A DNA stretch of 54,263 nucleotides. Source: an uncultured Bacteroidales bacterium (GTDB lineage Bacteria > Bacteroidota > Bacteroidia > Bacteroidales > ML635J-15). The notes beneath the pieces are model-generated. The model searched no databases, was not told the DNA's origin, and saw only the letters and a program-made list of their open reading frames with translations. Numbering within the stretch: the stretch's first letter is position 1; each line of letters begins with the position of its first letter. The DNA lies in assembly GCA_964527535.1 (NCBI GenBank), contig CAZGPW010000038.1, forward strand, positions 1-54,263, written 5' to 3'. The translations under genes and the position numbers were made by a program. Of the stretch, positions 40,559 through 43,224 are shown one piece after another.

Positions 40559-41959
40559 TTAAAAATTTATATTGTTCGTAAAAAACGCTGAAAGTCTTGA
40601 TGCGGAGGAATTGTCAGAAGGTTTTTTAAGGTGCTTTTTTTCAAAACGATTGTTAATCCATCTCAATACTTTGACATTATTGACCTCTGAAAGGTGATTA
40701 CACAGATAAAAGTTTGAATATAGAGCACTGGAAATGCTTCTGGTTTTAAAAATTGTTGAAATAAACTTGGTTATCAAAAAGATTGGTTTACTTTTTACAT
40801 GATTGATTTCCTGAAATATTTCAGGCAGTTTTTGAATTTTATTGTTCTTAAAATGAACCGTATAAAAATTGTAATAATCCCAATCTTCAGGAAAATTTGT
40901 GTACATCAAATTGTTATTGGTTAAATTTCGTTCAAAAAGTTTTGAACCGGGCAAGGGGGTTAATAATGTAACAAGAAATCCATCAACAGATGACTTGAGC
41001 ATATATTTTTTTCGTCTTTTAATGCCCTTGATTGTGTCATTTTCAAGTCCAAACATAAAAACACCACAAATTGCAATCCTGTGTTTATGAATATTATCAA
41101 TTATTTTTTTATAATTTTTATGGTTTTTAGCGTTTTGTGTTTTGTTCAACAATAACAAGGTATCTTTATCTTCTGCTTCAAAACCAATAACCAATAAACG
41201 GCAACCGCTTTTTCTGGCATAATAAAGAAATTCATTATCCAGGCCTGCATTTATTGATACCATTCCAATCCATTCTTTATTGAGGTTTTGTTTTATCATT
41301 TCTTTGAATATGGAAATGATATGATTCCGGTTTTTTGAATTGAAGCCGTAAATATTTTCATCTGTAAAGAACAATGTTTTTTGCTTAACATTGTTGATTT
41401 CATCAATTACCAAATCAATATCACGGAAAAAATGTTTTTGTTTGTGAATCTTATTGATGCAGCAAAAATCACATGCCATAGGACAACCTCTTGATAATTG
41501 TAGTGAAGCTGTTTTATAGTTATGGTTATAAACAGAACGCTGAAGTTTATAATCTAATTTGGTATTTCCATAATAATATTCCTTCAGTCTATTTGTTTTA
41601 AAATCATTAAGTAATGTTTCCCAAATACCCTCAGCTTCACCGATAACGACACTATTGGCAAATTTTATGGCTTCTTCAGGCAAAAGTGAAGCGTGTATCC
41701 CTCCAATAACTGTTGTAATGCCTTTATTATTGAAGGTTTCTAAAATTTTATAGGTTGCGTTTATATTCAGGATCCTGGCAGTAACTGCTACCAGGTCAAC
41801 ATTTTTTACTTCAAAATCATCCAGCCTTAAATCCATTATTTCAACATCCCACTCTTTTTTGGGAGTTAAGGATGCAATGATGCCCAATTCAACCGGTTCA
41901 TAAAAGTTTTTGACATGAACTTCATAATCCGGATTTATTAACAATAATCTATATTTCAC
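40559..41959 (-). CDS. B12-binding domain radical SAM protein (paralog of 37788)
   Basis: LLLINP, EPVELGIIASLTP, GGIHAS, GEAE; SRGCPMACDFC, FTDEN, LLTPLPGS, PEDW. Confidence 0.92.
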   Translation of the reverse strand: MKYRLLLINPDYEVHVKNFYEPVELGIIASLTPKKEWDVEIMDLRLDDFEVKNVDLVAVTARILNINATYKILETFNNKGITTVIGGIHASLLPEEAIKFANSVVIGEAEGIWETLLNDFKTNRLKEYYYGNTKLDYKLQRSVYNHNYKTASLQLSRGCPMACDFCCINKIHKQKHFFRDIDLVIDEINNVKQKTLFFTDENIYGFNSKNRNHIISIFKEMIKQNLNKEWIGMVSINAGLDNEFLYYARKSGCRLLVIGFEAEDKDTLLLLNKTQNAKNHKNYKKIIDNIHKHRIAICGVFMFGLENDTIKGIKRRKKYMLKSSVDGFLVTLLTPLPGSKLFERNLTNNNLMYTNFPEDWDYYNFYTVHFKNNKIQKLPEIFQEINHVKSKPIFLITKFISTIFKTRSISSALYSNFYLCNHLSEVNNVKVLRWINNRFEKKHLKKPSDNSSASRLSAFFTNNINF

Positions 41960-43224
41960 TTCAGGTGTTTTTTACGGGGTAAGAATAACGAATCTGCTTT
42001 TTGTTTCCTGAGAAATTTTTCCATGATTTCAATCCTGCGTTTCATGTCTTCCATGCTTACTTTAGGAAATAATTTGGCTGCAGGCAGATAATCAAATTCA
42101 TAATAATAGGTTACCCTTGCGTTATCGAACTGAATGTTTTTCACAAAGTTCAGTGTATCCTCAAAATCCCTTTCTGTTTCCGTGGGAAAACCGACAAAAA
42201 ACAAAGCATCCATCCTTAATCCAGGGTTAAGTTTCCTGAAAAAATTCAATACGGCCTCTACATCTTTGACCTTGTAATGCCTGTTCATCAACTGTATTAT
42301 TCTGTCACTTCCACTCTCCATTGCTATGGTTAAATCCCACACTTTTTTTGACTGAATGTATGGCGTTAAATAATCTCTGTTCCTGACTATCCAATCTGGA
42401 TTCATGCCATGCAAAGACCATTTGACATTAAACCCTTTATCGGTTTCGGATAATGCATCCAACAGCTCATTTAAGGAGCTATTGATATCCAGGCCATAAG
42501 AACCAAGGTCATCAGCCAGGAAATGAAACATTCGATACCCTTGACTTAACGTATCCTGATACTCATTAACCAGGGTTTCAATGCTTTTGCTTTTTATTTT
42601 CCCCACTGCCCTGCGAATGTTGCAGTAAGAACAATTATTGGCACATCCCCTGCTGGCCAAAATAAAACATGCATCCTCAACCCTGCTTCCATTGTTATAC
42701 CGGATAAATTTTTTATAATCTTTCAAACGGTGTAATTTGCGGAAAAAAGTACCGGATACACCATACTTAAAAAACAGGGTTGGGTATGAATAATAATCAT
42801 GCTTTGTAAAAAATATGGTTTTATCCATATCTGCATAATGATAGGTATGCGGGTCGGGAGTCTGATTGAATCTGATTCTGAATCCGGGAAAATACGTGTC
42901 TATATCATTGATGTTTTTTGTTGCAATGGCAGGGCCGTCAAACGCTGTTCTTAATTCTTTAAGATTAGAACCGGGCATACACCCCATCACTATTAATTGA
43001 GCCTTGTGTTTACTATATTGATTTATATCCTTCAATGTGTTTTCAACATCTGCCGGGGAAACTGAACATGTAACATATACAATATAATCAACATCATCAA
43101 GTGAATCTGTTACAATCAGGTCATTTAAAGCAAAATAATTTCTTAACTTTGATGCATCCAGGCTACGCAAAGGACATTGCGAAGGTGGGTCGATTACAAA
43201 AACTCGTTTATTATTGTGATTCAT
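41956..43224 (-). CDS. Methylthiotransferase-like radical SAM protein (UPF0004 + rSAM, no TRAM)
   Basis: CPLRSLD, VTC, MGCMP; RGCANNCSYC, DDLGSYG, ESGSDRI..LMNR, VGFPTET; paralog of 26917. Confidence 0.87.
   Translation of the reverse strand: MNHNNKRVFVIDPPSQCPLRSLDASKLRNYFALNDLIVTDSLDDVDYIVYVTCSVSPADVENTLKDINQYSKHKAQLIVMGCMPGSNLKELRTAFDGPAIATKNINDIDTYFPGFRIRFNQTPDPHTYHYADMDKTIFFTKHDYYSYPTLFFKYGVSGTFFRKLHRLKDYKKFIRYNNGSRVEDACFILASRGCANNCSYCNIRRAVGKIKSKSIETLVNEYQDTLSQGYRMFHFLADDLGSYGLDINSSLNELLDALSETDKGFNVKWSLHGMNPDWIVRNRDYLTPYIQSKKVWDLTIAMESGSDRIIQLMNRHYKVKDVEAVLNFFRKLNPGLRMDALFFVGFPTETERDFEDTLNFVKNIQFDNARVTYYYEFDYLPAAKLFPKVSMEDMKRRIEIMEKFLRKQKADSLFLPRKKHLK

Follow-up and report, generated by a model that had tools for sequence, protein, structure and literature searches.

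Two genes of an uncultured Bacteroidales bacterium of the ML635J-15 lineage (GenBank assembly GCA_964527535.1, contig CAZGPW010000038.1), located within a stretch of 54,263 bp that is referred to below as the window, encode methylthiotransferase-like proteins, MTL1 and MTL2, which are composed of a UPF0004 domain and a radical S-adenosylmethionine (SAM) domain and have no TRAM domain. On the basis of sequence comparison, both proteins are assigned to a large, unnamed, uncharacterised, and mostly metagenomic TRAM-less clade of the MiaB/RimO/MtaB superfamily. Their genes belong to an island of 18 genes, 14 of which, including the two MTL genes, encode radical SAM proteins. MTL1 and MTL2 are predicted, with about as much confidence as doubt, to be two-cluster enzymes that insert sulfur or a methylthio group into a membrane-anchored lipid or glycan intermediate.

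Among radical SAM enzymes with two clusters, the methylthiotransferases are a textbook example. Four subgroups, all of them with TRAM, are distinguished in the available parts of two earlier reports (PMC2952846; 10.1101/717249), and the accessible text of a 2023 paper gives tRNA (A37) and ribosomal protein S12 as the only known methylthiotransferase substrates (PMC10702137).

Domain architecture and conserved residues of MTL1 and MTL2

The profile scan proposed in an earlier examination of the DNA letters without database searches (the sequence-only reading) recovered UPF0004 (PF00919; Pfam cut-off 27 bits) in MTL1 and MTL2 with 31.7 and 37.7 bits, and Radical_SAM (PF04055) with 56 and 72 bits, respectively. 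Neither the TRAM domain (PF01938) nor the cobalamin-binding domain (PF02310) was matched in these proteins even at E ≤ 1. The two paralogues are 47% identical over 394 residues; the MTL2 frame is open up to a TTG at 28296, and the alignment of homologues favours the ATG at 28161 as its start. With TIGR00089, the NCBIfam model of the MiaB/RimO subfamily, MTL1 and MTL2 scored 179.8 and 203.2 bits, which is below the cut-off of 251, and their alignments reached only profile position ~360 of 429. The scores with the equivalog models TIGR01574, TIGR01125, and TIGR01579 (114.2, 133.5, and 141.7 bits for MTL1; 133.7, 160.3, and 168.2 bits for MTL2) were likewise below the cut-offs (355.3, 356.95, and 357.05, respectively). 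TIGR01578 and TIGR01579 were the second and third best NCBIfam matches, with 141.7-174.9 bits (cut-offs 314.7 and 357.05), and the B12 families of NCBIfam gave at most 76 bits, compared with 180-203 bits for TIGR00089.

The best relatives of solved structure in single-sequence searches were RimO 4jc0 (E 1.2e-26), followed by MiaB 7mjz/7mjv. The RimO alignment ended at query residue 401, corresponding to chain residue 354 of 438, and thus the TRAM part has no counterpart in the query. The FPK motif is followed by 34 residues in MTL1 and 29 in MTL2, versus 88, 86, and 94 residues in MiaB, MtaB, and RimO of the same genome. The length of this tail was bimodal in a MAFFT alignment of 258 rows, made up of 251 relatives from databases (340-520 amino acids) and seven proteins of this genome, with a short group of 20-50 residues and a TRAM-bearing group of 80-100 residues. 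The tails, together with the absence of PF01938, agree with the sequence-only reading, in which both proteins were described as ending shortly after FPKV with no room for a TRAM domain.

Six cysteines were kept almost throughout the alignment: C17 and C53 (MTL1 numbering) in 246 of the 258 rows each, C82, C194, and C198 in all rows, and C201 in 257. The radical SAM motif of MTL1 and MTL2 has the form CxxxCxxC. At least 85% conservation in both the TRAM-less and the canonical groups was observed at 23 positions, including the six Cys, S304, M313, R315, G345-F346-P347, E349, T350, and R397; the core motifs SGS, MxR, and GFPxET are therefore common to MTL1/MTL2 and canonical methylthiotransferases. 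Only three positions were specific to the canonical group and three to the TRAM-less group. The motifs CPLRxLD, xTC, MGCMP, SYG, GSDRI..LMNR, VGFPxE, and FPKV, listed in the sequence-only reading, were all seen in the alignments of both proteins.

The linker between the two domains comprises 88-91 amino acids in MTL1/MTL2 versus 43-61 in the canonical enzymes of the genome, and MTL1 and MTL2 have an extra, aromatic-rich stretch of ~26-30 residues. In the alignment, the segment corresponding to MTL1 124-184 had a median length of 56 amino acids in the TRAM-less proteins and 30 in the canonical ones. Phe, Tyr, and Trp made up 13.4% of the insert segment versus 4.9% in the canonical proteins, while Lys and Arg accounted for 17% versus 19%, so the basic content is not distinctive. 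Of the basic/aromatic insert suggested earlier, the additional length and the aromatic character were retained, and the word "basic" had to be dropped.

The genome of the window (3.5 Mb, 302 contigs, 96% complete) was searched in six frames. TIGR00089 detected three frames above its cut-off and four TRAM-less frames below it. Canonical enzymes, which had been expected elsewhere in the genome, were found on contigs C285 (MiaB, 494.6 bits in NCBIfam, cut-off 355.3), C150 (MtaB, 422.3 bits, cut-off 357.05), and C78 (RimO, 461.4 bits, cut-off 356.95). The TRAM-less frames include, in addition to the two of the window, one on contig C8 (423 amino acids, ~30% identical) and one on C142 (416 amino acids, 45-50% identical). 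The only PF01938 match was the MiaB frame on C285; TRAM_2 (PF18693) matched the RimO frame on C78, a stand-alone frame on C140, and, weakly, MiaB. Neither domain was detected on contigs C38, C8, and C142, and no TRAM gene that might have been split off lies next to the MTL genes. The stand-alone frame (C140:3015-3188, plus strand, 85 amino acids) matched TRAM_2 with 31.9 bits (cut-off 27) and is not linked to any methylthiotransferase gene.

Like RimO, the methylthiotransferase of an S12 aspartate (4jc0, 2qgq), MTL1 and MTL2 have the UPF0004 three-Cys triad, the radical SAM core, and the SGS/MxR/GFPxET motifs; RimO, however, carries a C-terminal TRAM_2 (~84 more residues) and a shorter linker, and the MTL proteins are outside the RimO clade. 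The core also aligns with that of MiaB, acting on i6A37 of tRNA (7mjv-7mjz; profile 4-395 to chain 16-387), with the six ligand Cys in common, whereas MiaB carries TRAM and its last ~70 residues remained unaligned. The same core is found in MtaB and e-MtaB (CDKAL1-type, t6A37), from which MTL1 and MTL2 differ by having no alignment in the TRAM region and by their placement in separate clades. The B12 (class B) enzymes, for example MgmA (9ccb) and the six of the island, share with MTL1 and MTL2 a related core and a flavodoxin-like N-terminal domain; in contrast, MTL1 and MTL2 contain no PF02310 and have the Cys triad instead.

The TRAM-less family and its phylogeny

A phmmer search against 1.84 billion cluster representatives yielded 18173 matches at E ≤ 0.001, of which 6153 reached E ≤ 1e-10 and 748 reached E ≤ 1e-30. 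The top 150 matches were mostly 360-430 amino acids long and ended near query residue ~408. In a Pfam scan of 111 proteins (MTL1, MTL2, and the representatives P0117-P0225, unfiltered), UPF0004 and Radical_SAM were present in all 111 and TRAM or TRAM_2 in none; one weak nucleotide-diphospho-sugar transferase match and one histidine phosphatase domain were the extras. As a lead, 22 of the 30 nearest Atlas clusters of a stored homologue with 65% identity contained UPF0004 and Radical_SAM only, and those clusters originated mainly from Omnitrophota and Thermodesulfobacteriota. The search for solved structures found none inside the family, whose profile matched only RimO (E 1.6e-72) and MiaB (3.9e-61) across both domains, TM_1862, and, more weakly, MgmA (9ccb; 2.4e-27). 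In databases, the relatives go under "radical SAM protein"; one source calls them automatically, by similarity, "tRNA A37 methylthiotransferase MiaB", a name that is very likely wrong for these proteins.

The phylogenetic tree (IQ-TREE quick, LG+G4) was built from 89 rows, comprising all 38 long-tail sequences, including MiaB, MtaB, and RimO of the genome, and 51 of the 220 short-tail sequences. It was divided into 37 canonical and 52 TRAM-less rows with a support of 94 in the SH-like approximate likelihood ratio test (SH-aLRT). The canonical side resolved into RimO, MtaB, e-MtaB/CDKAL1-named, and MiaB groups, and the TRAM-less side included all 51 short-tail rows and P0179 (an 81-residue tail). 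The same 37/52 split was obtained without the tail and linker columns (support 90, not starred), and the separation from the canonical clades thus appears to have good but not conclusive support when the trait columns are dropped. MTL1, MTL2, and the C142 paralogue fell into a starred group of 11 rows, and the C8 paralogue was placed far off on the TRAM-less side. MTL1 and MTL2 were not classified as MiaB, RimO, or MtaB because they fail on the TRAM domain, the curated cut-offs, and placement in the canonical clades.

When the tree was rooted on five B12 enzymes of the island, the canonical enzymes formed one clade (93) and the TRAM-less rows were paraphyletic. The paraphyly rests on branches with supports of 81 and 39, and the outgroup branches are long; consequently, TRAM may have been either gained or lost. 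The rooted tree hints only weakly that the TRAM-less form may be the older one, from which the tRNA and S12 enzymes would have arisen by acquiring TRAM. The sequence-only reading had spoken of a redirected subfamily: a distinct TRAM-less subfamily outside MiaB, RimO, MtaB, and e-MtaB was recovered in the phylogeny it had proposed, while the descent from RNA enzymes implied by "redirected" was not supported by the rooted tree, which weakly hints at the opposite polarity.

Predicted function and alternative explanations

Both Fe-S sites are kept in MTL1 and MTL2, the RNA-binding tail is lost, and the genes are located in a membrane-linked biosynthetic island, which makes a non-RNA target probable. 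The location of both paralogues inside a biosynthetic cluster had been recognized from the letters alone; the island is conserved and was found to contain no RNA-related genes. The neighbourhoods of distant relatives have a similar character. A metagenome scan provided 80 loci, 33 of which were examined, and the open reading frame (ORF) was found for 31. In 29 of these, 66-98 residues followed GFPxE (78 in MTL1, 73 in MTL2, and 133 in MiaB of the genome); of the remaining two, one had no GFPxE motif, and the other (L066) was canonical-looking, with 128 residues. The 120 neighbouring ORFs of 26 loci (within three genes, up to 700 amino acids, close kin and duplicates excluded) were annotated using Pfam. 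Among the families listed, there were 15 radical SAM proteins (9 with B12-binding and 4 with SPASM domains), 5 GT2 and 2 GT1 glycosyltransferases, 4 class I methyltransferases, 3 DegT aminotransferases, 3 ABC_tran, 3 PEMT, and 2 Polysacc_synt. Judging from these annotations, the neighbourhood theme is tailoring of envelope glycans or lipids together with other radical SAM enzymes, and not translation.

According to the proposed mechanism, each MTL enzyme would have two [4Fe-4S] clusters bound. The steps follow those of MiaB and RimO, for which SAM cleavage, hydrogen abstraction, and C-S bond formation via the auxiliary cluster are described in the accessible part of the 2023 paper (PMC10702137). 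The radical SAM cluster would cleave SAM reductively, and the resulting 5'-deoxyadenosyl radical would abstract hydrogen from an unactivated carbon; the auxiliary cluster would carry sulfide or methylsulfide, with which this carbon would form a C-S bond, and the product would be a thiol, a thioether, or a methylthio compound. RNA would not be the substrate; the most likely one would be a lipid or glycan intermediate that is prenyl-linked, anchored in the membrane, and both produced and exported by the island, with the two (elsewhere three) paralogues acting at different sites or steps.

Several observations weigh against this prediction. The binding of an auxiliary cluster is predicted from three conserved Cys ligands, and such cysteines do not prove a cluster or sulfur transfer. 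The substrate is deduced from neighbouring genes only, and the neighbour counts given above cover the top 25 families and have no matched control set. The UbiA subfamily encoded in the island is unnamed, and the 569-residue membrane protein, a possible GT-C type glycosyltransferase, had no sequence match in Pfam, NCBIfam, or PDB. The ABC-2 permease present in two related loci is missing from the islands of the window and of genome G015; only a gap of 410 bases (45827-46236) occupies its place in the window, so no permease partner for the ABC ATPase is obvious within the island. An amphipathic helix of the insert was not among the top hydrophobic-moment windows, and membrane binding via the insert is therefore unsupported. 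Finally, no obvious sulfur-supply gene was found in the island.

The last point would also fit a possible, though rather doubtful, alternative in which the same fold acts on the island substrate by non-sulfur chemistry (C-C coupling, cyclisation, dehydrogenation, or methylation) with the UPF0004 cluster serving as a substrate anchor or an electron relay. The residues E, L, and D near MTL1 positions 232, 235, and 341 are at least 85% conserved in the canonical enzymes and not in the TRAM-less ones, and the context of the first Cys is CxxRxLD versus GCxxN in the canonical enzymes of the genome. Moreover, the outline of a 2026 review of lipid radical SAM enzymes (Tes, Mss, Gms, GrsA/B, Gmm, Cds, HpnH/J/P/R, Jaw5, and ladderane enzymes) includes only C-C formation, methylation, cyclisation, and ring contraction, and "methylthiotransferase" occurs there in the reference list only (PMC13459092). 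On the other hand, the six ligand Cys and the SGS/MxR/GFPxET core are common with the sulfur-inserting methylthiotransferases, and among solved and curated families the nearest are methylthiotransferases without exception. It is unlikely that MTL1 and MTL2 are RimO-like modifiers within a set of radical SAM enzymes tailoring a protein or a ribosomally synthesized and post-translationally modified peptide (RiPP), for instance the FISUMP lipoprotein of the island or a precursor whose gene lies elsewhere. RimO shows that a protein can be a target of the family (PMC10702137, accessible text), several radical SAM genes of the island weakly match RiPP maturases (all far below cut-off), and a FISUMP-domain gene is conserved inside the island. 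Nevertheless, no conserved small ORF was found upstream of or within the island (the 410-base gap corresponds to ~180 bases in G015), the ABC ATPase belongs to the glycan/lipid (Wzt/TagH) type, not to the peptidase-fused peptide exporters, and genes for UbiA, a CMAS-like methyltransferase, a sulfotransferase, and glycosyltransferases recur with the MTL genes.

Continued action on RNA, with RNA binding provided in trans (e.g., by the TRAM_2 ORF on C140) or via the insert, is very improbable. Such a stand-alone TRAM_2 frame does exist, and all characterised relatives except RimO act on tRNA; yet the genome already has its own MiaB, MtaB, and RimO, the MTL genes are near-full-length in just 7 of 41 related genomes and matched in none of 400 other sampled genomes of the phylum (E ≤ 1e-70), and they are part of a low-GC accessory island without RNA-related neighbours. 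It is hardly credible that both genes are functionless, decayed or truncated copies of housekeeping methylthiotransferases. Their products are shorter at the C-terminus than the canonical enzymes, but the frames are intact, all ligand residues are kept, the orthologues are 62-84% identical and syntenic across genera while the paralogues share 47%, and the best 150 of the relatives (748 representatives at E ≤ 1e-30) end at about the same point; this conservation already contradicts decay.

If insertion of sulfur or methylthio into an envelope lipid or glycan is correct, the island would make an envelope molecule that is heavily tailored by radical chemistry (methylated, cross-linked, and thiolated) and belongs to a so far undescribed kind, and methylthiotransferase-type enzymes would obtain a third class of substrates. 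The TRAM-less clade is tentatively predicted to comprise the first methylthiotransferase-type enzymes putting sulfur or methylthio on membrane lipids or polyprenyl-linked glycans, a proposal that may well prove wrong. With its 14 radical SAM genes, the island is compact and syntenic, and it could be tested as a system for discovering a new envelope molecule in uncultured anaerobes. The literature searched (subscription-only papers and supplements were outside its scope) described no TRAM-less methylthiotransferase-like group or this island; the group may have been mentioned earlier, for instance in network surveys of the superfamily. A "methylthiotransferase-like" protein, slr0309, is reported from cyanobacterial lipid droplets in the available part of another paper (PMC12223511).

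Gene content, synteny, and distribution of the island

The operon-like island extends from 23473 to 45826 (~22 kb), with all genes on the minus strand and spacings of -8 to 131 bases (Table 1). Its G+C content of 35.3% is lower than that of the genome (40.3%) and of the two flanks (40.0% and 39.7%). The radical SAM set consists of six B12-binding proteins, four small proteins, one with a SPASM/twitch domain, one with FISUMP, and the two MTL proteins, none of which reaches any NCBIfam cut-off. In total, 52 radical SAM matches were detected in the 3.5 Mb genome, 14 of them in the window. The PF02310 cut-off (32.1 bits) was passed by five of the six B12 genes, the sixth (37788-39134) scoring 29.5 bits, and three of the four small radical SAM proteins had a weak STM4011-like match. 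Language-model look-alikes of the 569-residue membrane protein, which are regarded as a lead, were RgtA/B/C/D-like (GT-C type) glycosyltransferases and DUF6311. The UbiA protein had no sequence match in PDB.

Table 1. Genes of the radical SAM island, with coordinates in the window, listed in order of transcription.
Feature	Coordinates	Strand	Length (amino acids)	Remarks
Small radical SAM protein	44921..45826	-	301	First island gene; weak STM4011-family likeness
B12-binding radical SAM protein	43226..44917	-	563	Best NCBIfam match BchE-like, far below cut-off
MTL1	41956..43224	-	422	UPF0004 + radical SAM, TRAM-less; auxiliary-cluster triad C17/C53/C82, radical SAM motif C194/C198/C201
B12-binding radical SAM protein	40559..41959	-	466	Start overlaps MTL1 stop by 4 bases
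ABC transporter ATPase, Wzt/TagH type	39161..40507	-		Weak Wzt_C-like C-terminal domain
B12-binding radical SAM protein	37788..39134	-	448	
Membrane protein	37102..37782	-	226	No family match; ~3 hydrophobic segments
Multi-pass membrane protein	35362..37071	-	569	At least 9 hydrophobic segments
UbiA-family membrane prenyltransferase	34500..35369	-	289	Rare subfamily (19 database matches)
Small radical SAM protein	33579..34490	-	303	
Membrane protein	33028..33582	-	184	No family match; ~5 hydrophobic segments
B12-binding radical SAM protein	31562..32962	-	466	
B12-binding radical SAM protein	30065..31504	-	479	
FISUMP lipoprotein-type domain joined to radical SAM	28293..29945	-	550	One frame
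MTL2	26917..28161	-	414	MTL1 paralogue, same architecture
Small radical SAM protein	25866..26825	-	319	
Radical SAM protein with N-terminal SPASM/twitch domain	24414..25847	-	477	
Small radical SAM protein	23473..24396	-	307	Last island gene

The gene order of the whole island was kept in G015, a genome from a different genus of the same family, with orthologues 53-77% identical (MTL1 64%, MTL2 62%) except for the 226-residue membrane protein (26%). The identity of MTL1 orthologues ranged from 64 to 84%. The FISUMP and radical SAM parts are two genes in G015 (locus L022, 16606-17160 and 15502-16539) and in locus L033, and the separate radical SAM gene of G015 has its own hydrophobic N-terminus; the 550-residue frame of the window, which also includes a lipoprotein-type signal, may be a genuine fusion or may instead reflect read-through or the assembly. 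Partial copies of the island were found in loci L010, L011, and L027, the ABC-2 permease being located upstream of the first island gene in L011 (1005-1823) and L027 (10265-11083). Locus L011 comes from a record titled as a Methanolobus metagenome-assembled genome; its island genes have the same order and 55-79% protein identity (28% for the 226-residue membrane protein), and the contig is likely to be bacterial and wrongly binned, not an archaeal copy.

In G015, the island is followed by a further module with a third MTL gene, two B12 enzymes, UbiA, a CMAS-like methyltransferase, and two twitch enzymes, the counterpart of which in the window genome is split over contigs C137 (L026) and C142 (L025). 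The locus on contig C8 (1597-11131, L024) contains an ABC-2 permease and an ABC ATPase, a B12 enzyme, an MTL gene, two small radical SAM genes, a CMAS-like methyltransferase, UbiA, and a galactose-3-O-sulfotransferase-like gene. Its B12 enzyme, adjoining the MTL gene, is 52% identical to the one encoded next to MTL1 (40559..41959). The C8 and C137/C142 loci, two more radical-SAM-rich regions of the genome, each combine a TRAM-less MTL gene with UbiA, a CMAS-like methyltransferase, and B12 radical SAM genes; an ABC-2 permease with its ATPase, a sulfotransferase-like gene, and a GT4 gene also occur at the other MTL loci of the genome.

MTL1 was matched at E ≤ 1e-30 in 11 of the 41 related genomes and was near-full-length in seven of them only (G000, G003, G004, G010, G015, G016, and G037), the other four matching residues ~164-407 with 30-32% identity. 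None of an evenly drawn set of 400 other genomes of the phylum, with only four candidates scored per genome, matched the family profile at E ≤ 1e-70, and a scan of genome contigs gave only two loci. Since the MTL genes are scarce in both the related genomes and the phylum sample, the island is regarded as an accessory trait; the low G+C content and the presence in 7 of 41 genomes suggest an accessory, possibly transferred, element.

The island is flanked by unrelated genes, RarA at 22117-23394 (plus strand) and an AlgH-like gene at 46237-46833 (minus strand). Small ORFs at 45800-47560 were considered as a RiPP precursor and rejected, as they are not conserved in G015. Two heptamer arrays, AAGTCAG x5.4 (47255-47292) and TTCCGTC x13.6 (47336-47430), are located in the intergenic region before a tricorn-protease-like gene; the Rfam scan of 22000-47600 returned only a chance miRNA match, far below the gathering score, which overlaps these arrays. 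A separate polysaccharide-type locus (105-13221, plus strand) lies ~10 kb from the radical SAM island and encodes several GT4 glycosyltransferases, WecG/TagA, PGA_cap, ATP-grasp, a formyltransferase, a polysaccharide deacetylase, and UDP-GlcNAc 2-epimerase. Between this locus and the island there are genes for saccharopine dehydrogenase, lgt, and trehalose genes.

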